From assembly GCF_004010195.1 (NCBI RefSeq), contig NC_057719.1, forward strand, positions 40,343,323-40,407,322: a stretch of 64,000 bases of DNA. The letters run 5' to 3'. Source of the stretch: Chiloscyllium plagiosum (lineage: Eukaryota). The notes beneath the pieces were generated by a model that saw nothing but the letters and a program-made list of their open reading frames with translations, did not search any database and had not been told where the DNA came from. Below are positions 4,651-63,389 of the stretch, in pieces. Within the stretch, counting starts at the first letter, position 1. The number at the start of each line of letters is the position of its first letter. The position numbers and the translations under genes are program-made.

Positions 4651-5695
4651 CATCTTTTGTGTTTTCATTATTCCTACTGCTATTTTCTTCGGCTCTCGTA
4701 CCATAAAACCTTTGTGATTCAAGTTCTCGTGCCTTCCACCCTGTTGCAAAATCTTCTCTTTTTTTTTGGTGCCTCCTCCACCCACTTTTGACTTGCGCAA
4801 GATATACTAAATGTCCATCTTGCCTCAGTTCTGATAAAGGGGGCCATTAACCTAAAATGTTTACACTGTTCCACCCTCCACATGGTCTGTCTGGTTTGCA
4901 GATTACTTCCAGTGACTTTCTTTATTTCACATATCCAGAATCTGCAATACGCTGCTTTGTAATTTGTGAAGCAGATCATGAGAAACCGTCAATGAAGTAA
5001 TACTCTGCTCTTGGGTGGGTAAAGAAATAATGACATTATTTTCCTCTCGCTGAGGTGGTGAGAATAATGGTAAGCATGATGACTTAATCAGACGAGAGTC
5101 AAAAAAATAAGATTCTCATCATTGAGTCAAACTGTCACTATTAAATACTTCTTCATTAGATGGTGAGATCAAATTCTTGTCATCAAGCAATGAGAAGCCT
5201 TAATTGCATGTATTTGCATCTCAATAATCAACCTTCCTTGATGTTAGGTGGAGCTGCTACAACTGCAGCAGTGCCTCAATGGTCAACAGGTATATTATCT
5301 CTCTGAACCAAATGTCTTGTGATCTTTTCCACAGCTACCTGATGAAGGAAGTGAAAGAAAGATGAACTCCAAAAGCTAGTGCTTCCAAATAAATCTGTTG
5401 GACTATAACCTGGCGTTGTGTGATTTTTAACTTTGTCCACCCTAGTGCAACACCAGCACCTCCTCATCATGAACCCACCAAGCACACAGTTAGGTGAGAG
5501 CAATATATCAGCCTCAGAATATCAGGTTGTTTGTAAGCATGTAGCAATTGGTCTCTTAAAGGTAGCTTTTTGTGGGCAGTCAAGTAGTCGTCGTTGTCTC
5601 AGAGGTAGCACTTTAGCATCTGGCTTCTGGATCTGAGTTTGAACTTTGGACAAAGACAGCCTCTAACTGAATTTTAGTTGAACTTTAAATGGGTT

Positions 5696-5789
5696 TACAA
5701 AGTTAAAAATCACACAACACCAGGTTATATTCCAACAGGTTTAATTGGAAGCACACTAGCTTTCGGAGCGACGCTCCTTCATCAGGTGA
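5696..5789 (-). mobile_element. 94-bp PLE-derived insertion headed by an intact hammerhead motif (family B)
   Basis: 12-bp TSD TTTAAATGGGTT (5684-5695 and 5790-5801). Absent from the paralogous site near 22570. Same sequence as the end of the PLE at 14968. Confidence 0.85.
5754..5788 (-). ncRNA. Minimal type I hammerhead ribozyme motif, intact
   Basis: cac-CTGATGA-a-ggagc-gtc-gctcc-GAAAG-CTA^gtg. Stem I cac/gtg, perfect 5-bp stem II, palindromic AGCT at stem III. Confidence 0.85.
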
Positions 5790-6147
5790 TTTAAATGGGT
5801 TGGTTGCAATGATAGCAGCCCATGTGATGACAGGGCCATTTTCACCACGAAAGCTTTTGTTTTTACCCAGCTCACGATTATTTGTTCTTTTGTCTGCCAA
5901 CTGCCCTTCCTCTTTGAACTCCATCTCCACCCAAAGTTTAATCTTTTACCTGTCCCCTCTTCAGCATACAGAGCAATTGTTTCATAGCTACCATTAGTTC
6001 TGAAGAAGGAACACTAGACCCAAAGAACTAAACTCTACTTTCTCTCCACGGATGCTGCCAAACCTGTTAAATTTCTCCAGTAAAGTGTTTTTATTAGGCA
6101 ACGTCTGAACCCAGCAAACAGATCTGCACATGTGCTGGTCTTAAGTG

Positions 6148-6268
6148 ACGTTCCTGATGAAGGGCTTTTGCCTGAAATGTTCCTGCTCCTCAGATGCTGC
6201 CTGACCTGCTATGCTTTGCCAGCACCACTCTAGACTCTGATCTTCAGCATCTGCATCCTCACTTTTGC
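6148..6268 (+). mobile_element. ~120-bp PLE-derived insertion headed by a hammerhead motif (family C)
   Basis: TSD CTTAAGTG on both sides. Starts acgttc-CTGATGA-agggcttttgcct-GAAA. Absent from the paralogous promoter near 23210-23240. Confidence 0.8.
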
Positions 6269-6356
6269 CTTAAGTGCTGTACAGGTCAGCAACAGTGCGC
6301 AGGTGCAGATGACATTTGTTCTGATCCGCATGTTAGACAGTTGTCGCTCGTGCACC

Positions 6357-6498
6357 ATGATTCGAAATCTGATGGCGCAGCAAATACAGGACTGGTTCAC
6401 CATCAGGAAAACTGTTACCGGCGTCGAACTGATGGCTGATGCCTCAAGCACCTGGAGGAGGAGGAGGTGGTGGAGCCTAAAAAGCCCCGAGCGAAGCA
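6357..6498 (+). pseudogene. TDRD9: Duplicated, frameshifted copy of TDRD9 coding exon 1
   Basis: MIRNLMAQQIQDWFTIRKTVTGVELMADASS, then a net frameshift relative to 23312-23445. G>R change in the conserved WFTIGKTVT motif. Donor CA|gtgaga instead of CG|gtgaga. Confidence 0.85.
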
Positions 6499-8076
6499 GT
6501 GAGAAATCGACAACCACTACGTGTGGATTTCATAAACAAACCAAAACATAGCTTGCTGGAGAAACTCAGCAACTCTGGTAGCGTCTGAGGGAGACATATT
6601 CTCTCTCTTCCTCCCTCGTCTGGGAAATGGGCACCAATATTCACATTTCCTATGCACAGATACATCAAGGCCTATGGTTATATTTAATGGTAAATCTACA
6701 TTTCTTTAGATGTTAAATTCATGGTATGGATTTTAAAACTTAGCAACTGAATTAATTTCAATGAAAATACTAAGTGAGATGGACAGACTAACATTACTGG
6801 TTTTATTGGCACCTCTTTATTCTTCTTTCAATGTAAATATTGTGTCCAGTGAAATAAACTTTTGCTGACTATGATTAAGCTGTAGATTTCCCCAGCTAGG
6901 GGAAATGTTCTTGCATCTACTCTATCAAGTTCTCTTAGAATTTGGTATGCTTCAGTGAGATCACCCCTCATTCTTTTAATTGCAGAGAATATAGGGCCAG
7001 TCTTCTCTGTCTCTGGTCAGTCATACTTGCCAGGAGATCAGTCCAGCCTTTATCACACAACCTCTCAGGCAGTTATATCCTTCCTTGGGAAATGAGACCA
7101 AAACTGAATGCGGTACCGTCGGAGCAGTCTCAGCAGTCTCACCAATTGTTGCAGCAATTGTTACATCTGTACTCAAATCCTCTTGCAATAACTGGAAGCA
7201 TATTTACCGTTTTGCTTGATATATCTGCATTTTAGCTTTCAGTGTCTTATGAACACGAATATCTAGGTCCCTTTGGCTATCAACTCTTCCCAATCTTTTA
7301 GCATTAAAGAAATATTCTGCATTTCTGTCCTTTCCTACCTAAGTGGATAACTCTCTTTTTTTCATAATATATTCCATCTGCCATGTTCTTGCATGTCAAA
7401 ATCTCCTGAAAGCCTTTTTTTGCATCCACCTCACAGTTCACATTCTCACCTAATTTTATGTGTGCAGTAAACTTAGAAAATAACGTTTAGTCCCTGAATC
7501 ACTGATATTGATTGTGAATAGCTGGGATTGAAACACAAATCTTTGTAGTCCCCCACCAGGCACAGTTTATCAACCTGAGAATTGTGTTTTATTCATCCTC
7601 TTTCTGTTAACCAGTTCTCAGTCCATGGCTGTATATTACCCCCAATTCCATGTGCTCTAAATTTCTTTTACTAACCTGTGTGGAGCATTTTGACCCAGTG
7701 GCAATAAATAATAATGATCTGTTTCTGGGTTTGGATGCTGATTTGGAACAAAGCCTGGAGCTGGTGTATTTGCATGCCCTTGTTGCTGTTGTCAGCACAA
7801 TTAATGGATTTGGAAGCTACAGTTGTAGATAGTAGACACTGCAGTCAAGGAATGCTAGTGAAAGAGGGATTGCATTTTTGTGAAGGATTGGGTGCCAGCC
7901 AAGTGTTGCTTGCTCGGCTGCTATTTATTGCCCGTATTTTTCCCACCTTTAAAAAGATTATGGTGTGCTCCTTTCTTGAATGGGTGCAGTCTGGTGAAAT
8001 TATTACCACAAAACTGTTGGTAGGGAGTTGAAGGTTTTGGTCAAGAGGGATGATGAAAAAGGATAGCATGAGAGTT

Positions 8077-11660: not shown

Positions 11661-11875
11661 GAAATTGACGTTTTGGGCAAAAGCCCTTCATCAGGAATAG
11701 AGGCAGGAAGCCTGCAGGGTGGAGAGAGCTTCTTGCCTCTATTCTTGACGAAGGGCTTTTGCCCGAAACGTCGATTTTCCTGCTCCTTGGATGCTGCCTG
11801 ACCTGCTGTGCTTTTCCAGCACCACTCTAATCCAGACTCGGGCTTCCAGCATCTGCAGTCCTTGTTTTTACCCTG
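11661..11875. mobile_element. Short PLE family C insertion with two inverted hammerhead motifs, each with a core mutation
   Basis: ~11661-11712 is inverted relative to ~11729-11780. Imperfect TSD tctgtaagagg / tctgtgagagg. Confidence 0.8.
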
Positions 11876-14967: not shown

Positions 14968-16395
14968 AAGTTAAAAATCACACAACACCAGGTTATAGCC
15001 CAACAGATTTATCTGGAAGCACTAGCTTTCAGAGCGCTGCTTCTTCATCAGGTGGTTGTGGAGAATAAGATTATAAGACACAGAATTTATAGCAAAAGTT
15101 TACAGTGTGACTTAACTGCAATTATATATTGAAAGAGACTTGGATTGCTCGTTAAGTCTCTCATCTTTTAGAATGACCATGTTGGTTTCAGTTCTTTCAC
15201 ATGTAAAACGCAAAACATTTTTTTAAAAGTTACATTCTCAAGTGAACTTTAACAATTGGTGTCATGTCCGCCCAGATAAAGTATTGAAGGTATGAGCTTC
15301 CCTGTGAAAGGCTGTCTGTGCCACAATGGTCAGACTGATTCTAATCTAAAAAATGGATTTACAGAAGCTGATATGGATTTGTGCAGTTTTTGAGCAAAGT
15401 AAAATGTCATTCTGCAAGTACAAGTTCACCCCACAAACTTATATGTGTATGTGTGTGTGTGTGGGGGGGAGGGGGGGGGTTATGAGAGTGTGTGAGTGAG
15501 AGTGCAAAGGTGTATAAGTCTGTTAGAGGATGTGTGTGGGAGTGTATGGGTTATCATATGAGAGAGAGTGTGTGTGTAGTGTAATGGGGTCACCTTTAGT
15601 GTAACATGAACCCAAGGTCCCAGTTGAGGTCATCCCCATGGGTACCAAACTTGGCTATCCGCCTCTGCTCAGCTACTTTTTGTTGTTGATTGTCCCAAAG
15701 TCTGCCTTGGAGGATGGTCGCCCAAAGGTCCGAGGTAGAATGTCCCGGATCACTGAAGTGTTTTCCAACTGGGAGCGAACATTCCTATCTTTTGATAGTT
15801 ATGCTGTGTCCCTTCATCCATTGCCGTAGCCTCTGCTTGGTCTTGCCAATGTACCATGCCTCAGGGCATCCTTGCCTGCAGCATTTGAGATAGTCAACGT
15901 TGGCTGAGTCGCATGAGTACCTGGCACGTACATGGTGGGAGGTGTCTCCATGTGTAATGGTGGTATCCATGTCGACATTCTGCCGCGTCTTGCAGCGTCG
16001 ACCGTGACAAGGTTGTATGGTATTGTCCTGAAAGCTGGGCAATGAACAATGATCTTTTTGAGGTTTGGTGGTTGTTGAAAGGCAAGGAGTGGAGGTGTGG
16101 GGAAGGTCTTGGCGTGTTGCAGACTGCGAAGAACATAGCGTAGTTTTTCGGATCTGGAAGTACTGGACAACAAACGGTACCTTGTCGATTGCAGCTCGTG
16201 TCTGTCTCCTGAGGAGGCCATTACGGTTCCTCACTGTGGCAAGTTGGAACTGGTGGTCAATGAGTTGAGCATCGTATCCTGTCCTTTTGAGGGCACCCCT
16301 GAGTACTTGCAAGTGCTCGTCACGTTCTCCTCATCTGAACAGATCCTATGTATGCATTGGGCTTGTCCAGAGGGGATGGCTATTTTAATATGTTT
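14968..16395 (-). mobile_element. Penelope-like element family B (RT C-terminus, GIY-YIG endonuclease, 3' pLTR), frameshifted
   Basis: SSFHPKHIKIAIPSGQAQCIHRICS; CDSANVDYLKCCRQGCPEAWYIGKTKQRLRQ. Hammerhead motif at 15020-15054. Confidence 0.9.
15020..15054 (-). ncRNA. Minimal hammerhead ribozyme motif (family B), core intact, stem II imperfect
   Basis: cac-CTGATGA-agaagcagcgctct-GAAAG-CTA^gtg. Confidence 0.7.
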
Positions 16396-19130: not shown

Positions 19131-19154
19131 AGATGCATGAAAGTAGGGTAGCTT

Positions 19155-19290
19155 CATTCCTGATGAATAAAGCTTTTTGCCCAAACCATCGATTTTGCTG
19201 CTCCTCGGATGCTGCCTGAACTGCTGTGCTCTTCCAGCACCACTAATCCAAAATCTGGTTTCCAGCATCTGCAGTCATTGCTTTTACCTA
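19155..19290 (+). mobile_element. Short PLE family C insertion with decayed hammerhead
   Basis: ttcctgatgaa...tttttgcccaaaccatcg followed by ctcggatgctgcctgaactgctgtgctcttccagcaccac. Confidence 0.8.
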
Positions 19291-20510: not shown

Positions 20511-21690
20511 CCATGTGTCCTCATTTTGTTTCCATTTTTGTTGTGGGTTTGGTGTGTCGGATTTTTTTCCTTCCTTCATAGGCATTGTATAGCTGCTCTA
20601 CATCTATTCACCTCGACCAATCTTTTGTGTTTTCATTGTTCGCACTGATTCTCTTTAGCTCTCATACTGTTAAACCTTTGTGATTTAAGCTCTCCTGCTT
20701 TCCCACCTGGTTACAAATCTTCCCTTTTGTTGTTCCTCCTCTTCTCACTTTTGACTTGCATAAACATATTCAATTTCCATCTTGTCTCCGTTCTGATTAA
20801 GGGGGCCATCAACTTGAAACCCTCCACAGGTTCTGTCTGACCTCCAGATTATTACACATTTATTTCACATTTCCAGAATCTGCAATACATTGCTTTGTAA
20901 TCTATGAATCATGACAAACTCTCAATGGAGTAATCCTGTGCTCTTGGGAAGAAAACATTAATTTTATCATTTTTCCCTTGCTGAGGTAGCAAGAATAATG
21001 GTAAGCATGATGATTTAATCAGACCAGAGTCAAAAAATCAGATTCTCATCATTGAATTAAATTGTCACTTTTAAATACTTCTTCTTAGATGGCAAGATCA
21101 AATTCTTAACAAGAAGCCTAATTGCATGTATTTGCATCTCATTAATCTTCCTTATCTAGATAGAGCTGCCTCCCTGGTCAATAGGTACAGTGTCTCCCTG
21201 AACCCTCCAAGCACACAATTGAGGTACAGAAATGCATCAACCTCAGAACATTGGATTGTTTCTGAGCAGGGAGCACTCGGTCCCTCAAATGGAGCGATCC
21301 TGGTCAGTCAAGTAATTGTCTTTGCCTTCGCACAGAATGAAAGGCACCTAGTTACTGGCTCAGAGGTTGAACTTGAGGTTGAGCAATTCATCAACTTCAC
21401 CAACACATTCCACCCTGACCTTAAATTTACCTGGACCATCTCTGACATCTCCCTCCCCTTCCTGGACCTCTCCATCTCCATCAGTGATGACCAACTTGAC
21501 ACTGACATCTTCTACAAACCCACCGACTCCCACAGCTACCTGGATTACACCTCTTCCCACCCTACCTCTTGCAAAAATGCCATCCCGTATTCCCAATTCC
21601 TCCGCCTCCGCCGTATCTGCTCCCAGGAGGAGCAGTTCCACCATAGAACACACCAGATGGCCTCCTACTTTAGAGACCGCAATTTCCCTT

Positions 21691-22252
21691 NNNNNNNNNN
21701 NNNNNNNNNNNNNNNNNNNNNNNNNNNNNNNNNNNNNNNNNNNNNNNNNNNNNNNNNNNNNNNNNNNNNNNNNNNNNNNNNNNNNNNNNNNNNNNNNNNN
21801 NNNNNNNNNNNNNNNNNNNNNNNNNNNNNNNNNNNNNNNNNNNNNNNNNNNNNNNNNNNNNNNNNNNNNNNNNNNNNNNNNNNNNNNNNNNNNNNNNNNN
21901 NNNNNNNNNNNNNNNNNNNNNNNNNNNNNNNNNNNNNNNNNNNNNNNNNNNNNNNNNNNNNNNNNNNNNNNNNNNNNNNNNNNNNNNNNNNNNNNNNNNN
22001 NNNNNNNNNNNNNNNNNNNNNNNNNNNNNNNNNNNNNNNNNNNNNNNNNNNNNNNNNNNNNNNNNNNNNNNNNNNNNNNNNNNNNNNNNNNNNNNNNNNN
22101 NNNNNNNNNNNNNNNNNNNNNNNNNNNNNNNNNNNNNNNNNNNNNNNNNNNNNNNNNNNNNNNNNNNNNNNNNNNNNNNNNNNNNNNNNNNNNNNNNNNN
22201 NNNNNNNNNNNNNNNNNNNNNNNNNNNNNNNNNNNNNNNNNNNNNNNNNNNN
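21691..22252. other. Assembly gap
   Basis: Run of N. Confidence 1.
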
Positions 22253-22420
22253 CTTGTCGGACCTGCCCAGCTCCTTTTCCACCTATCCACTCCCCCCTCT
22301 CCTCCCTGACCTATCACCTTCATCTCCTTCCCCACTGACCTATTGTACTCTATGCCACTCTCTCCCCACCCCCACCCTCCTCTAGCTTATCTCTCCACGC
22401 TTCAGGCTCTCTGCCTTTAT

Positions 22421-22452
22421 TCCTGATGAAGGGCTTTTGCCCGAAACGTCGA
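22421..22452 (+). ncRNA. Minimal type I hammerhead ribozyme motif (family C), intact core
   Basis: tc-CTGATGA-a-gggc-tttt-gccc-GAAAC-GTC^ga. GUC cleavage triplet and palindromic ACGT at stem III. Confidence 0.85.
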
Positions 22453-22689
22453 TTTTGCCTGTCCTCGGATGCTGCCTGAATTGCTGTGCTCTTCCAGCAC
22501 CACTGATCCAGAACCAGGTTGAACTTCAGTGCAGAGGGAAAGGCTTTAGCTGAACTTTAGTCAGAAGTCTAAACGGTTTGGCTGTGATGATAGTGCCACT
22601 TCTCCCCACCAATACTCCCTCAGCTTTTCTTTTTGCCCAGCTCACCAATATCCGTTCATTTTTATTGTCTGGCCAACTGCCCTTTCTCC

Positions 22690-23009
22690 TAGATTAGATT
22701 TCTCCTAGATTACAGTGTGGAAACAGGCCCTTCGGCCCAACAAGTCCACACCGACCCGCCAAAGCGAAACCCACCCATACCCCTACATTTACCCCTTACC
22801 TAACACTACGGGCAATTTAGTATGGCCAATTCACCCGACCCTGCACATCTTTGGACCGTGGGAGGAAACCGGAGCACCCGGAGGAAACCCACGCAGACAC
22901 GGGGAGAACGTGCAAACTCCACACAGTCAGTCGCCTGAGGCGTGAATTGAACCCGAGTCTCTGGCGCTGTGAGGCAGCAGCAGTGCTAACCACTGTGCCA
23001 CCGTGCCGC
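22690..23009 (-). mobile_element. HE1/V-type SINE in the TDRD9 proximal upstream region
   Basis: Near-identical to 13735-14046. Absent from the upstream duplicate. Confidence 0.92.
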
Positions 23010-23083
23010 AGATGTTAGCAATTCTCTCTGAGTTCTACCTCCACTCATTGTATAATCCTTCAACAAGGATTCAGCATACAGAG

Positions 23084-23311
23084 CAACCGTTTCCTAGCTA
23101 CCATTAGTTCTGAAGAAGAAACACTGGACCCAAAACTCTAACTCTACTTTCCCTCCACGGATGCTTATTAAACAACTCCTGAGCCCAGCAAACAGATCTG
23201 CACATGCGCTGGTCCGAAAAGCCGTTCAGATGTGCGACAGTGCGCAGGCGCAGATGACATTTGTGCTGTCTCGTTCTGATCCGCGTGTTGGAAAGTTGTT
23301 GCTCGTGCACC
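23084..23311 (+). promoter_or_regulatory. Putative TDRD9 proximal promoter/5' UTR with NRF1-like and MYB-like motifs
   Basis: TGCGCAGGCGCA at 23241-23252, AACCGTT at ~23085, GCCGTT at 23221, locally CpG-rich, Kozak gcaccATG. Confidence 0.5.
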
Positions 23312-23445
23312 ATGATTCGAAATCTGATGGCGCAGCAAATACAGGACTGGTTCACCATCGGGAAAACCGTTACCGGCGTCGAACTGTTGGCTGATGCCTC
23401 GAGCTTGGAGGAGGAAGTGAAGCCTGAAAAGCCTCGACTGAAGCG
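23312..23445 (+). CDS. TDRD9: TDRD9 coding exon 1
   Basis: MIRNLMAQQIQDWFTIGKTVTGVELL matches the recalled human N-terminus MLRKLTIEQINDWFTIGKTVTNVELL. Donor CG|gtgaga, phase 2. Confidence 0.93.
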
Positions 23446-24464
23446 GTGAGAAATCGACAAACACCACATGTGGGTTTCACAAACAAACCAAAACATAACT
23501 TGCTGGAGAAACTCAGCAACTCTGGTAGCGTCTGAGGGAGACATATTCTCTCTCTCCTTCCCTCATCTGGGAAATGGGCACCAATATTCACATTTCCTAT
23601 GCACAGATACATCAAGGCCTATGGTTATATTTAATGGTAAATCTACATTTCTTTAGATGTTAAATTCATGGTATGGATTTTAAAACTTAGCAACTGAATT
23701 AATTTAAATGAAAATACTAAGTGAGATGGACAGACTAACATTACTGGTTTTATTGGCTCCTCTTTATTCTTCTTTCAATGTAAATATTGTGTCCAATGAA
23801 ATAAACTTTTGCAGTGGCTGACTGATTAAGCTGTAGATTTCCCCAGCTAGGGGAAATGTTCTTGCATCGACTCTATCAAGTTCTTTTAGAATTTGGTATG
23901 CTTCAGTGAGATCACCCCTCATTCTTTTAACTGCAGAGAATATAGGGCCAGTCTTCTCTGTCTCTGGTCAGTCATACTTGCCAGGAGATCAGTCCTACCT
24001 TTATCACACAACCTCTCAGGCAGTTATATCCTTCCTTGGGAAAGGAGACCAAAACTGAATGCGGTACTCTTTGAGCAGTCTCAGCAGTACCTCTTTACAT
24101 CTGTACTCAAATCCTCTTGCAATAACTGGAAGCATATTTACCGTTTTGCTTGATATATCTGCATTTTAGATTTCAGTATCTTATGAACATGAATATCTAG
24201 GTCAACTCTTCCCAATCTTTTAGCATTAAAGAAATATTCTGCATTTCAGTCCTTTCCTACCTAAGTGGATAATTTGTGTTTTTCATGTTATATTCCATCT
24301 GCCATGTTCTTGCAAGTCAAATCTCCTGAAAGCCCTTTTTGCATCCTCCTCACAGTTCATGTTCTCACCTCATTTTCAGCAAGTTTAGAAATATAACATT
24401 TGGTCCCTGAATCACTGATATTGATTGTGAATAGCTGGGATTGAAACACAAAACTTTGTGGAAG

Positions 24465-30353: not shown

Positions 30354-33300
30354 TCATAGACTCACAGAGATGTACAGCACAGAAACAGACCCTTCAGTCC
30401 AACCTGTCTATGCCGACCAGATATCCTAATCCAATCTAGTCCCACCTGCCAGCATCTGGCCCATATCCCTCCAAACCCTTCCTATTCATATACCCATTCA
30501 AATGCCTCTTAAATGTTGCATTGTACCAGCCTCCACCACATCCTCTGGCAGCTCATTACATACAAGTACCACCCTCTGCGTGAAAAAGTTGCCCCTTAGG
30601 TCTCTTTTATATCTTTCCCTTCTCACCTTAAACCTATGCCCTCTAGTGCTGGACTCCCCGACCCCAGGGAAAAGACTTTGTCTATTTATCCTATCCATGC
30701 CCCTCATAATTTTGTAAACCTCTATAAGGTCACCCCTCAGCCTCCGATGCTCCAGGAAAACAGCCCCAGCCTGTTCAGCCTCTCCCTGTAGCTCAGATCC
30801 TCCAACCCTGGCAACATCCTTGTAAATCTTTTCTGAACCCTTTCAAGTTTCACAACATCTTTCCGATAGGAAGGAGACCAGAATTGCATCCAATATTCCA
30901 ACAGTGTCCTGTGCAGCCGCAACATGACCTCCCAATTCCTGTACTCCATACTCTGACCAATACAGGAAAGCATACCAAACGCTTTCTTCACTATCCTATA
31001 TACCTGTGACTCCACTTTCAAGGAGCTATGAATCTGCATTCCAAGGTCTCTTTGTTCAGCAACACGGCCTAGGACCTTACCATTAAATGTATAAGTCCTG
31101 CTAAGTTTTGCTTTCCCAAAATGCAGCATCTCGCATTTACCTGAATTAAACTCCATCTGCCACTTAGCCCACTGGCCCATCTGGTTCAGATCCTGTTGTA
31201 ATCCGAGGTAACCCTCTTCGCTGTCCACTACATCTCCCATTTTGGCGTAATCTGCAAACTTACTAACTATACCTCTTATGCTCGCATCCAAACCATTTAT
31301 GTAAATGACAAAAAGTAAAGGGACCCAGCACCGATTCTTGTGGCACTCCACTGGTCACAGGCCTCCAGTCTGAAAAACAACCCTCCATCACCACCCTCTG
31401 TCTTTACCTTTGAGCCAGTTCTGTATCCAAATGGCTAGTTCTCCCTGTATTCTGTGAGATCTAACCTTGCTTATCAGTCTCCCATGGGGAACTTTGTCGA
31501 ATGCCTTACTGAAGTCCATATAGATCACATCTACTGCTCTGCCCTCATCAATCTTCTTTATTACTTCTTCAAAAAACTCAATCAAGTTTGTGAGACATGA
31601 TTTCCCACGCACAAAGCTGTGTTGACTATCCCGAATCAGTCCTTGCCTTTCCAAATACAAGTCCATCCTGTCCCTCAGGATTCTCTCCAACGACTTGCCC
31701 ACCACCAAGGTCAGGCTCACTGGTCTATAGTTCCCTGGCTTGTCTTTACCGCCCTTCTTAAACACTGGTACCACGTTTGCCAACCTCCAGTCTTCCGGCA
31801 CCTCACCTGTGACTATCGACAAATATCTCAGCAGAAGGCCCAGCAATCACTTCTCTAGCTTCCCACAGAGTTCTCGGGTACACCTGATCAGGTCGTCGGG
31901 ATTTATCTACCTTTAACCGTTTCAAGACATCCAGCACTTCCTCTTCTGTAATCTGGACATTTTGCAAGATGTCACCATCTATTTCCCTACAGTCTATATC
32001 TTCCATATCCTTTTCCACAGTACATGCTGATGCAAAATACTCATTTAGTATCTCCCCCATTTTCTGTGGCTCCACACAAAGGCCGGCTTGCTGATCTTTG
32101 AGGGGCCCTATTCTCTCCCTAGTTACCCTTTTGACCTTAATGTATTTGTAAAAACCCTTTGGATTCTCCTTAATTCTATTTGCCAAAGTTATCTCATGTC
32201 CCCTTTTTGCCCTACTGATTTCCCTCTTAGGTATACTCCTACTTTCTTTATACTCTTCCAAGGATTCACTCGACCTATCCTGTCTATACCTGATATATGC
32301 TTCCTTCTTTTTCTTAACCAAACCCTCAATTTCTTTAGTCANNNNNNNNNNNNNNNNNNNNNNNNNNNNNNNNNNNNNNNNNNNNNNNNNNNNNNNNNNN
32401 NNNNNNNNNNNNNNNNNNNNNNNNNNNNNNNNNNNNNNNNNNNNNNNNNNNNNNNNNNNNNNNNNNNNNNNNNNNNNNNNNNNNNNNNNNNNNNNNNNNN
32501 NNNNNNNNNNNNNNNNNNNNNNNNNNNNNNNNNNNNNNNNNNNNNNNNNNNNNNNNNNNNNNNNNNNNNNNNNNNNNNNNNNNNNNNNNNNNNNNNNNNN
32601 NNNNNNNNNNNNNNNNNNNNNNNNNNNNNNNNNNNNNNNNNNNNNNNNNNNNNNNNNNNNNNNNNNNNNNNNNNNNNNNNNNNNNNNNNNNNNNNNNNNN
32701 NNNNNNNNNNNNNNNNNNNNNNNNNNNNNNNNNNNNNNNNNNNNNNNNNNNNNNNNNNNNNNNNNNNNNNNNNNNNNNNNNNNNNNNNNNNNNNNNNNNN
32801 NNNNNNNNNNNNNNNNNNNNNNNNNNNNNNNNNNNNNNNNNNNNNNNNNNNNNNNNNNNNNNNNNNNNNNNNNNNNNNNNNNNNNNNNNNNNNNNNNNNN
32901 NNNNNNNNNNNNNNNNNNNNNNNNNNNNNNNNNNNNNNNNNNNNNNNNNNNNNNNNNNNNNNNNNNNNNNCATTCTAGCAAATTTCCCTGCCAGTATATT
33001 AGTTCCCTTCCAATTTAGGTGCAATCTGTCCTTCTTATACAGGTCAATTCTACCCCAAAAGAGATTCCAATGATCCAAAATATGAATCCTTCTCCCATAC
33101 ACCAGCTCCTCAGCCATGCATTCATCTGCTCTATCCTCCTATTCCTGCCCTCACTAGCTCATAGCACTGGTAGTAATCCAGATATTACCACCCTTGTAGA
33201 CCTTTTTAAATTTCTGCCTAACTCTCTGTAATGTCCCTTCAGACTTTCAACCTTTTCCCTTCCTATGTCATTGGGTCCAATGTGGACAATGACCTCCTGC

Positions 33301-50428: not shown

Positions 50429-53400
50429 CTTTTGTTTTATATAGATATTTTATTGAAAAAAAATTTTAAAAGATTTTTTTACAAAATTACAAAAGTAATA
50501 CAAAGAAATATAAGCATCAATATAAAATTAAATAAGTTTAAAAAAAAACAAAAAAGAAAAACCCCAACTAACTACTAATCAATCCTACAAACAACCAAAA
50601 CATACAATAGAATATCATACATTACTAGCAATAAACAAAATAATTAAATAACTAGATGCATGCTCAAAATAGATTTACATCAAGTCATAATAAAACCCAT
50701 ATTTATATGGGATTCCTCCTCTCGGGGATCCTCGAAACAGCCAGAACCATTACCACAGCTAGACAAAATCCCTGGACAGTATGGCTGAAGTATCTGTGTT
50801 GATATAGTTCAAAAAGGGCTGCCATGTTTTATAGCATAATTCCTTTTTTTGGTGCACCATATTTGTAAGGAAGTGAAGGGGGATGTATTCCATGATTAAC
50901 CTGTGCCAGTTCGAGAGTCCTGGAGGGCCTTTGGCTACCCAGTTCACTAAAATATTTTTCCTTGCATAACAGGAAAGAATGGTAAATAATTTCCTCTCAT
51001 GCACATCCAGGGAGGGAAAATCTGAAGAGCCCAAAAGCAGGGACACTGGATCCGATCTAATCTCCGTACCCAAGATCCCTGTCAACGCATTCGCTACTCT
51101 GTCCCAATACCTACAGATCTTATGGCATGTCCAACTTCTATTTAGCATTTAGGACGCATTGGGGTTGCTCCTGCCTTGAATTTTGAGAGTTGTTCAGGTG
51201 CCATATGAGCCCTATGGATTATCTTTAATTGAATAGCCTGAGTTCTATTACAAACAGAGATCTTTCTGGCATTTTCCCAGATGTTCTCCTACATTTCTGA
51301 TGAGACTTCCAACCCTAATTCTTGATTCCAGGTTTAAAATAATCGTTCCATGTCCTTAGATACTTTATTATCTAATGAGTGATGAAGAGTACTAACTGAG
51401 GGCGGCTCCATTGGCATAGCACTCTCCTTTCCCGACCTGATTTGTTGGGGTTAAATATCAGTGTGGTCTTCTTTTGTATAAAGTCTCGTATTTGGAAATA
51501 CCGAAAAAGGTCCCTGTTAGGCGCTCCAGACTTCTGGTGCAGCTGCTCAAACCTTCCCATCGAACAGGTCTCCTAAAAAGGAGATACCGCTGGACTTCAA
51601 AGTTATAAACGTAGCGTCTGTCACCCCGGCTGAAATCCCGATGCTCCCACTATAGGCGTATAAGGAGAGGTTTTTTGCAGGTTACTCTCACCTTGTTGCA
51701 TTATCCTCCAGGGTTTAATTGTATTTAATACAATAGGGTTTTTACAATAGTCCATCATCTTGTCCATAAATAAAAGATTGATGAGGGGACATTTTGCTTG
51801 GGAGGTTTCAGGATCTAGGCTGAAAATGTATTGCTGGAAAAGTGCAGCAGGTCAGGCAGCATCCAAGGAACAGGAGAATCGACGTTTCGTGCATAAACCC
51901 TTCTTCAGGAAACCTCACTTTCTCCTCGAAGGTTTCAATATCTAGCCAGATTGGGTCTCTTGTGAGCCACAATCAGTTAGCTACATAGGACGATAAGGAG
52001 CTCAATTGATACCTCCTAAAATCTGGAAAGTCCAATCCTTCCCTTGCTTGTGGAAGCTGCAGCTTTTCTAATTTAAGATTCCAAGTAAAAGAGCCGAGCC
52101 AGCCGTAAAGCTTACGCAACGCCTGTCTTGGTAGCATCGGGGGAGCATTGTCACAGGATATAAAAGATGAGGTAGGATATTCATCTTAACTGGGGCTACT
52201 CTGCCTAACCAGAATATTGGAAGATCTCCCCAGTGTTGAAGGTCCTGTCTTATTTTCTCTAATAAGTGCATAAAATTGGCTATATACAACGTTCTAGTGA
52301 CCACCGAAAAGGAAAACAAGATCTGTCTGGTAAATTAGATACACTGGCAAGGCCTCAGATTTCATGAAATTGATTTTATACCCTGAAATATACCAACTAA
52401 GTTGATCACTTGGATTAGACGAGACATGGATATCAAAGGATCACTTAGGAAGAGGACGATATCATTCGCATATAGAATGATTTTATGTTTGCCCGATCCA
52501 ACCCTCAGAGCCGTTATGTTAAGGTCAGTTTGTATAGTTTCCGCTAGTGGTTCAATCACTAGCATGAATAATAATGGTGTAGAGGACATCCCTGACGACA
52601 TCCCCTGCCAACACTAAAGCCATCCGAACTTAGACCATCAGCGATCATTGCTGCTTTGGGATCAATGTATAACACTGAAACCCATTTACTAAATACCTCT
52701 CCGACACCGAACATTTCCAGTGTATAAAAAAAGATATGGCCATTCCACCCGGTCAAATGCCTTCTTTGCGTCCAAGGAGACAGCTAAACCCGATATTGTT
52801 TCCTGTTGGCAGGCTTGTATCATATTTAAGACCCTTCTGATTTTATTAGTTGACCTGCGGCCCTTTATAAATCCCATCTGGTCTCTTTTATGATGTATAG
52901 TAAGACCCTCTCCAATCTTAATGCTAACATTTTAGAAAGAATTTTGAAATCTACGTTTAGTAAGGATATGGGTCTATATGATGAGTAATCTTCTGGGGCC
53001 TTTCCCTCTCTAAGAATAAGAGATATTTGCTTCTCTCAATGAAGGTGGGAGGTAGCCCTGACTATGTGAATAATTGTACATATTTATGAGTGGCCCGACC
53101 AGTTCTCCGATAAAGTCTTTACAGACCTCGACCTGAAATCCATTTGGTCCAGGTGCTTTGCCACTCTGAAGCTGCCTAACTGCGTCGAATACTTCCTGGG
53201 TTGTCAGGGGAGCATTCAAGATCGACACCTGCTCAGAGGTTAAGCCTGGAAGGGTCATATTTTTAAAAAAGGATTCCATCTTCTCAGTTCTATCCTCACA
53301 GTCCTGCAATTTATACAGTTCAAAATAGAACTTTCTAAAGGCTGTATTGATCTTTTTATGATCACAAGTCAGGGTACCAGCACTTTCTCTAATGGACGCT

Positions 53401-62607: not shown

Positions 62608-63110
62608 AGTGGACGCTTTGGAGAGGGTGCACAGAAGGTTTACGAGGATGTTGCCTGGTATAGAAGGTACTAGCTATGAAGAAAGGTTGAGTAAGTTAGG
62701 TTTATTTTTTTTTGATAAAAGGAGATTGAGGGGGGACCTGATTGAGGTTTATAAAATCATGAAGGGTATAGACAGGGTGGATAGAGACAAGCTTTTTCCC
62801 AGGGTGAAGGATTCAATAACGAGAAGTCACACTTTCAAGGTGAGAGGTGAAAGGTTTAAGGGGGATACACGGGGCAAGTACTTCACACAGAGGGTGGTGG
62901 GCGTTTGGAACGCGTTGCCAGCAGAGGTGGTTGAGGTGGGCACGGTAGATTAATTTAAGATCCGTCTGGATAAATGCATGAGTAGATGGGGAGTAGAGGG
63001 ATACAGATGCTTAAGAATTGACCGACAGGTTTAGACAGTACATTTGGATTGGCTCAGGCTTGGAGGGCTGAAGGGCCTGTTCCTGGCTGTAAATTTTTTT
63101 TGTTTTTGTT
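62608..63110 (+). mobile_element. CR1 LINE 3' fragment
   Basis: LERVHRRFTRMLPG...RLRGDLIEVYKIMKG...VWNALP. Confidence 0.92.
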
Positions 63111-63389
63111 ATGATATGTGTTGCAATACCTCAAACTGAGTCTCTGTGTGCTACAGTAAACTTTCTCAAAGAGTTTTTCAATTGCATTTTTTTTGTAAGA
63201 AGTACCCAGATGCTAAATTGAATTTGTCCTGCATCGTTGGAAAATGGGCTTCCCATTTTGAACACAAACAATTATACCTGTACCTTGTTACTTTCACTCT
63301 TATCCGGAATCATCTTTGCAATCCTTACCTCTACATCCCTGGAACTTTTCAGAGGCCTATAGAAAACACCCAACAGGATGACCTCACCT

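Follow-up and report, generated by a model that had tools for sequence, protein, structure and literature searches.

The literature on Penelope-like elements (PLEs) leaves open how these elements replicate, how head-to-head copies arise and what the hammerhead does (PMC4209133; PMC11167929; PMC3846280). Minimal hammerheads in pseudo-LTRs (pLTRs), dispersed motifs, tails, inverted partners, solo pLTRs and a pLTR promoter have already been published (PMC4209133; PMC8557442; PMC3846280; PMC2377424). For metazoan PLEs, Cervera and De la Pena (2014; PMC4209133) described minimal hammerheads in the pLTRs together with thousands of dispersed single motifs per genome, which they took as probably truncated PLEs. 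For Poseidon PAc of Anolis (Frangieh et al., 2024; PMC11167929), an optional tail was found to mark two internal reverse transcriptase (RT) start sites in vitro, the protein extends both target strands, hammerhead cleavage is not needed, and the model uses a multi-copy read-through RNA, with no leader run-off copies in the text. The Penelope of Adineta vaga (Arkhipova et al., 2013; PMC3846280) has a TATA box and initiator in its pLTR, inverted pLTRs, a one-sided tail and solo pLTRs; its head-to-head palindromes were read as self-priming on an antisense template, a point left open there. Non-LTR retrozymes are non-coding, hammerhead-bearing and pLTR-related; they are defined by tandem head-to-tail units of ~150–300 bp, each with a hammerhead, and by circular RNAs, and dispersed monomers also exist (PMC7761336; bioRxiv 10.64898/2026.07.22.740005). 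In L1, a second priming event (twin priming) gives inversions, and in both L1 and SVA an untemplated G at the junction is the accepted mark of a copied cap (PMC4859970).

The insertions described here lie in a 64,000-nt stretch of the Chiloscyllium plagiosum genome, referred to in its entirety as the window. Their motif has the same anatomy as the metazoan PLE hammerheads, the same place in a flanking repeat and the same dispersal as single motifs, but the copy number is far higher and the 5′ ends pile up with a junctional G (PMC4209133). As in PAc, two internal start sites define an optional tail, both target strands appear to be extended, and hammerhead cleavage would not be needed; unlike in PAc, short run-off copies are proposed, and the ORF starts at the end of the long tail, not in stem II (PMC11167929). 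The promoter-like pLTR, inverted pLTRs, one-sided tail and solo pLTRs recall the A. vaga element (PMC3846280). Non-coding, hammerhead-bearing monomers are shared with the retrozymes, but the present units are single or head to head and are not bounded at the cut site (PMC7761336; bioRxiv 10.64898/2026.07.22.740005). The junctional G and the inversions are shared with L1, but the two inverted arms overlap here (PMC4859970).

Two short insertions with target-site duplications

Positions within the elements are counted from the C of CTGATGA (0), with minus values upstream. An earlier note on this DNA had pointed to two ribozyme-headed micro-insertions with their own target-site duplications (TSDs), starting 4 and about 6 nt before CTGATGA, and the coordinates and repeats of both hold (Table 1). 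The first insert is 94 bp long and lies on the minus strand between identical 12-nt repeats, 2 nt of which also match the element, so that it starts 4–6 nt before its core. The second is 121 bp long, lies on the plus strand between identical 8-nt repeats and starts 6 nt before its core (6154); only the last 3 of these nucleotides match long copies, and ~6 nt over the predicted cleavage site have been lost. When the insert and one repeat were omitted, the paralogous duplicate aligned without gaps at both insertion points (near 22570, a weak paralog, and near 23210); therefore, both are insertions, as the earlier note had held, and the inserts, their TSDs and the empty paralogous sites are real.

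Table 1. Features of the window discussed in the text
Feature	Position in window	Strand	Basis
TSD, left copy, 12 nt	5684..5695	.	
Family 1 PLE leader copy, −4 to +89, short-tail 3′ end	5696..5789	-	100% match to longer copy L002
Homologous poly(A) sites, +57/+60	5728/5725	-	Reads on L363
Poly(A) hexamer ATTAAA, +40 to +45	5740..5745	-	678 reads with a poly(T) tail at L363, a homologous locus
Minimal type I hammerhead motif (predicted)	5754..5788	-	Sequence compared with motif of PMC4209133
TSD, right copy, 12 nt	5790..5801	.	
TSD, left copy, 8 nt	6140..6147	.	
Leader copy of a family 2 PLE, 3′ end at the long tail; hammerhead core (6154) decayed	6148..6268	+	
TSD, right copy, 8 nt	6269..6276	.	
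Family 2 head-to-head pair	11662..11872	.	
Family 1 long copy with upstream TATA-like box	14968..15110	-	
Family 2 leader copy, start ~−4 to −10, long tail, no clear duplication	19152..19289	+	
Family 2 long copy, extends upstream past the boundary	22380..22514	+	
Paralogous empty site of the first insertion, diverged	22535..22635	+	64/92 columns identical
Paralogous empty site of the second insertion	23165..23265	+	79/97 columns identical
Family 2 leader copy (short tail), headed by 12-nt inverted long-tail stub	51819..51924	-	

The basis of the paralog comparison is a diverged tandem segmental duplication (4652–7546 versus 20620–24459) with blocks of 73–90% identity; its most conserved part is 6276–7546, and the region near 6310–6550 may hold an exon. 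Assembly gaps are present at 21691–22252, directly upstream of the long family 2 copy, and at 32342–32970; gaps are common within the inverted PLE structures of the fetched loci.

Eleven tail matches were found in the window. Two further copies, near 19155 and 51912, had also been thought to begin right at the ribozyme edge. This stands in part: the start of the former is uncertain, and the latter, because of the 12-nt inverted tail stub in front of it, is of the head-to-head type. The other seven matches are long copies, inverted pairs or copies with different starts. Stubs of 8–12 nt from the inverted end of the long tail were seen on seemingly simple copies at loci L273 and L299 and at window positions 51913–51924, as if a second priming had aborted early. 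A 243-bp inverted repeat with 95% identity (2339–2931) belongs to a third family with a CTGAGGA-type core, also present at 63007–63111 and in L374; it is probably another PLE head-to-head structure.

The inserts are leaders of two Penelope-like element families

The first insert represents family 1 and the second family 2, with at least 21,758 and at least 10,737 exact copies of their tail motifs, respectively, in the 3.56-Gb genome. In the upstream direction, long copies continue into a 3′ UTR and then an ORF that has an RT, a CX2-5CxxC linker and a GIY-YIG-type domain. RVT_1 matches were obtained for both families, and the linker between RT and EN was read in the translations of both. A GIY-YIG-type motif was read by eye upstream of both repeats, Pfam gave no GIY-YIG match on the scanned frames, and the homologs have PF00078 and PF01541. 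The closest proteins are from sharks, with 84–91% for carpet sharks. The linker defines Neptune/Nematis-type PLEs and is absent from Penelope/Poseidon (PMC8557442); unlike the latter, the present proteins carry it, and by sequence both families are classified as EN+ PLEs, of the Neptune/Nematis type by the linker. The two inserts are the minimal-hammerhead leaders of these families.

A full-length family 1 copy of ~3.3 kb, locus L363, was found by protein search and has a repeat-ORF-repeat layout in which pLTRs flank the ORF. Its TATAAAT starts at −38 (30 nt before −8), an initiator-like A is at −8, and the ATG is at +121; the hammerhead is in the leader, 8 nt behind the TATA/initiator-like site and ~120 nt before the start codon. 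This promoter reading follows the usual spacing of TATA boxes and the initiator consensus. None of 10 long loci fetched for family 2 was full-length; L373 and L374 were considered and rejected, their upstream parts being separate insertions. No sampled tail-anchored copy ran past the tail into the ORF.

Family 2 sequence continues past the long tail (L193, L176 and L086, downstream of +128) through a pyrimidine tract that ends in AG. A word resembling a branch point lies upstream, and the long RT start site may thus coincide with a 3′ splice site. At L082, L199 and L226, copies of one family lie inside or directly beside copies of the other.

The hammerhead motif of the first insert consists of a 3-bp stem I, CTGATGA, an extra A, a 5-bp stem II, GAA and a palindromic AGCT, with the predicted cut between 5757 and 5756. 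The features of a minimal type I hammerhead (CUGAUGA/GAA core, extra base before stem II, stem II, palindromic 15.2–16.2 and short stem I) are complete in this copy and in family 2 copies such as that at 22423, and broken in the 6148 copy; the motif is a predicted minimal type I ribozyme, a kind that self-cleaves as a dimer. Rfam gave no match in the window at E ≤ 1, and folding gave no strong structure (z of −1.3, +1.2, −1.3 and −2.0 against shuffles).

5′ ends pile up just before the hammerhead

The positions of 5′ ends were determined for 98 family 1 and 96 family 2 copies, taken for each family from the first 100 listed tail matches, all within the first 15 Mb of contig C1; because copies were picked by sequence downstream of the hammerhead, the position of their 5′ ends had no influence on the selection. 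Ends were called against real long copies, and two rows per family were dropped because of an assembly gap or misalignment, which left 96 and 94 arms. A genome search with the 94-bp insert favors copies with the whole motif and was excluded from the end counts.

Ends fell within a boundary zone in 47/96 family 1 arms (−12 to +4) and 63/94 family 2 arms (−11 to +3). Counting only arms that reached the zone, 47/77 and 63/74 ended in it, compared with 5–11 expected, although the zone limits were set post hoc and pair arms are not independent, so that P values are only indicative. Simple, non-inverted copies alone gave 13/32 for family 1 (1.9 expected) and 28/35 for family 2 (3.4 expected). The truncation hazard was 0.03–0.14 per nt in the zone and 0.002–0.02 outside, and the upstream edge was sharp. 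The excess at the boundary is about tenfold in both families and is not due to chance; plotted against the core, the 5′ ends form a pile-up, not the smooth distribution of random truncation. These data uphold the earlier view that two PLE-derived families share a 5′ boundary that is not random and that precedes the cleavage site.

The boundary ends are spread over ~15 nt, not placed at one base; the upper edge for family 1 is at −8 to −11, and the modal end for family 2 is at −4/−3. Duplications of at least 10 nt flanked 25/47 and 30/63 zone-ended copies, compared with 4/141 and 2/189 swapped-flank controls. Simple short copies measured 88–138 bp in two size classes, with one exception that has an internal gap. 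No upstream flank was shared between simple short copies (0/13 for family 1 and 0/28 for family 2); therefore, a hidden subfamily is excluded. In RNA reads crossing genomic family 2 copies, depth fell from 432/285 to 70/80 across −4; this drop repeats the genomic boundary and is no evidence of a transcription start.

A junctional G precedes the 5′ end

For family 1, the non-templated base before −8, scored by eye in the first 100 of 1,596 places with templated C excluded, was G in 78, A in 7 and T in 15. One base further up, the counts in the first 100 of 969 places were G 16, A 19 and T 65; T is inflated there by mutation in long copies, so the fair contrast is G:A at 78:7 versus 16:19. A G before −8 was followed upstream by normal element sequence at only 4 places, which indicates that the G is junctional and not a subfamily variant. 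At local loci, a G preceded 8/10 family 1 ends at −8/−6 (22/54 elsewhere) and 10/14 family 2 ends at −4 (27/94 elsewhere); the excess before −4 in family 2 was modest, with 56 G versus 44 A.

Head-to-head pairs contained 17 of the 21 fetched G junctions, and there the G often also fits as the final base of the opposite arm. A G that fits both arms may reflect annealing through the 3′ C of the cDNA, for which it would be expected, and is no proof of it. Addition by terminal transferase would look identical to a G copied from a cap.

Two 3′ ends and their pairing in head-to-head copies

The 3′ ends fell at two sites, ~+85–90 and ~+120–130, split 47 versus 49 in family 1 and 45 versus 49 in family 2, and the sampled copies include both the optional 30–40 bp tail and the inverted, 5′-truncated partner. 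Head-to-head structures accounted for 60/96 family 1 and 55/94 family 2 arms. One short and one long tail were paired in 41/43 and 43/46 of the head-to-head insertions (84/89 in total), from which we infer that each side of the target cut primes at a different site. Arms of a pair were only barely more similar to each other than random arms (0.941 versus 0.934; 0.923 versus 0.902), which fits one RNA template as well as two.

The 543 motif matches in 1.3 Mb of loci included about three dimers in contiguous head-to-tail order and nothing longer. The dimers (L337:2165–2350, L007 and L361:6966–7380) have periods of 92, 145 and 291 nt and are possible rare seeds of partial tandems or retrozyme arrays.

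A probable run-off origin for the short copies

In LTR elements, minus-strand strong-stop DNA is a short cDNA reaching from a start site within the RNA to its capped 5′ end. We consider it probable that the short inserts are strong-stop-like leader copies of PLEs, formed when RT runs off the capped 5′ end; unlike strong-stop DNA, the short cDNA would be joined to the target and integrated, and no tRNA primer is evident. RT would begin synthesis at the two tail sites within the RNA, close to its front, and run off an end set by transcription starts at −8 (also −6) in family 1 and −4 in family 2. The junctional G would be copied from the cap, and ends up to +4 would reflect trimming or microhomology at joining. 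If both ends of the target cut were primed, each at a different start site, two overlapping run-off cDNAs would be formed, and their head-to-head joining would produce the palindromic pairs; completion of only one cDNA would leave a simple 90–135 bp insert with a duplication.

The pairing of short and long tails and the G favor two primings on sense RNA over the antisense self-priming considered for A. vaga. A transcript 5′ end also explains the boundary better than the mechanisms that the earlier note had offered, and the ribozyme is likely to head the short units only because it lies directly behind the transcript start. The support from family 2 is weaker, with a modest G excess, no clear TATA box, no full-length copy among the loci fetched and a −4 position that is also the first base of stem I. 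Neither of two read alignments listed a place where many molecules begin.

Alternative origins

The alternative that survives best, although we judge it unlikely, is that the RNA 5′ end is made by processing, such as exonuclease trimming to a folded stem I, or that RT leaves the template while finishing the unwinding of a (dimeric) ribozyme. The modal end of family 2 at stem I and the ~15-nt spread of ends agree with this, but the upper edge of family 1 lies 3–8 nt beyond stem I and bears the G, and the family 1 leader folds no better than shuffled sequence (z −1.3). RT stalled by the fold would leave its ends 3′ of the structure, in a stretch of low hazard (0.005–0.008 per nt), whereas the copies include the whole motif; RT stopping at the folded ribozyme, one of the suggestions of the earlier note, is thus not supported.

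We think it improbable, more so than processing, that the short copies form a distinct SINE- or retrozyme-like unit that is non-autonomous, has master copies of its own and is mobilized in trans by the PLE protein. Their high copy number, own duplications and size class of 90–135 bp would fit such a unit, and non-LTR retrozymes derive from pLTRs (bioRxiv 10.64898/2026.07.22.740005). Against this, the 5′ ends are variable, flanks are not shared, arrays are lacking, and no short-copy clade was found, with short copies in every subfamily seen: label changes between short and long copies on the trees were as frequent as after shuffling (25 versus 23.5; 10 versus 9.6), on only ~125 columns and hence weak trees. 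The copies, interspersed with long ones, not tandem and not bounded at the cleavage site, are thus at odds with the ribozyme-defined mobile unit that had been suggested, and with short copies forming clades of their own. Some short copies with an internal promoter could be minor sources.

A circular or multimeric ribozyme-cleaved RNA as template, which the earlier note had also entertained and which was proposed in PMC4209133, is very improbable. A few arms do start at +24 to +31 (4/96 and 6/94), but a circle closed at the cut would place upstream element sequence before the core or give permuted units, and neither was seen; the genome sample has no pile-up at the cleavage site, and none is listed in the RNA reads. 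One poly(A) single-cell run, from a kind of library in which circles would be missed, gave no supported back-junction at the cut; a back-joint of 42 nt close to the family 2 cut is backed by 5 reads with 2 starts, which is too thin. With the boundary upstream of the cleavage site and so few starts near it, the earlier argument that a linear cleavage monomer is inadequate is sound. Retrozyme identity was rejected on the same starts, the single or head-to-head arrangement and the rarity of dimers.

Ordinary random 5′ truncation combined with a reader's attention to CTGATGA can practically be dismissed, since long copies do truncate smoothly (0.003–0.01 per nt) but the sample anchored downstream of the motif still gives 0.05–0.14 per nt in the zone, which refutes it within this one-contig sample.

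A poly(A) site in family 1 and a tentative strand-transfer cycle

In one poly(A) single-cell run labeled as the same species, of which ~2% was read, poly(T) reads of family 1 extended from +60 (385 reads) and +57 (293 reads). These ends lie 11–15 nt after ATTAAA and before a GU-rich tract, and the genome is not A-rich there. ATTAAA or AATAAA is present at this place in 89/98 family 1 copies; together, the reads and the conserved hexamer indicate that the family 1 poly(A) signal is in use, although most RNAs with this poly(A) end may be host transcripts that terminate within an inserted copy. For family 2, no poly(A) end was found among the 6 loose-end rows listed of 136.

The family 1 poly(A) site lies between the proposed transcription start and the RT start sites. 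If the family 1 mRNA truly ends at +57/+60, its 3′ repeat would lack both RT start sites, and long copies would need a read-through RNA or an LTR-like jump. It is conceivable, though we hold this only tentatively and think it rather unlikely, that the PLE pLTR is a true U3-R-U5, that strong-stop cDNA jumps to the repeat at the RNA 3′ end, and that the mini-insertions and pairs are failed jumps and the majority product. Transcription would then start just before the hammerhead, and polyadenylation (family 1) or ribozyme cleavage (family 2) would end the RNA in the downstream repeat, before the RT start sites. Target-primed synthesis would begin near the RNA 5′ end and make the strong-stop cDNA, which would jump to the 3′ repeat and go on to copy the ORF, with mini-insertions and head-to-head pairs left wherever the jump failed. 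Among 266 local copies, no family 1 copy ended at +57–60 with a poly(A) run, and the cap G that strand transfer might leave within long copies was not in excess (4 places at −9 versus 12 at −10).

L363:4960 is joined to 4743–4764, so that the predicted start (−8) is connected with ORF positions ~+190 to +230. Such joints, seen in the poly(A) single-cell run and in two contig sets of presumed RNA origin, put leader copies behind fragments of the 5′ ORF, an arrangement expected from a template jump or a self-insertion.

Implications for Penelope-like elements

PLEs are a known class, and the short inserts are probably strong-stop-like leader copies of them, formed by run-off. A literature search over the main texts of mostly open-access papers gave no account of PLEs leaving run-off copies of the leader or undergoing strand transfer; the supplementary genomic end plots of PMC11167929 and bioRxiv 10.64898/2026.07.22.740005 may bear on novelty. 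On a run-off origin, tens of thousands of short copies would record the RNA 5′ end, both RT start sites and the priming of the target strands, and would thus provide a testable clue to the copying of a poorly understood class of elements. In vertebrate genomes, minimal hammerheads scattered as "solo" motifs, or as retrozyme monomers, may likewise be run-off products of PLE mRNA and not a family of their own.
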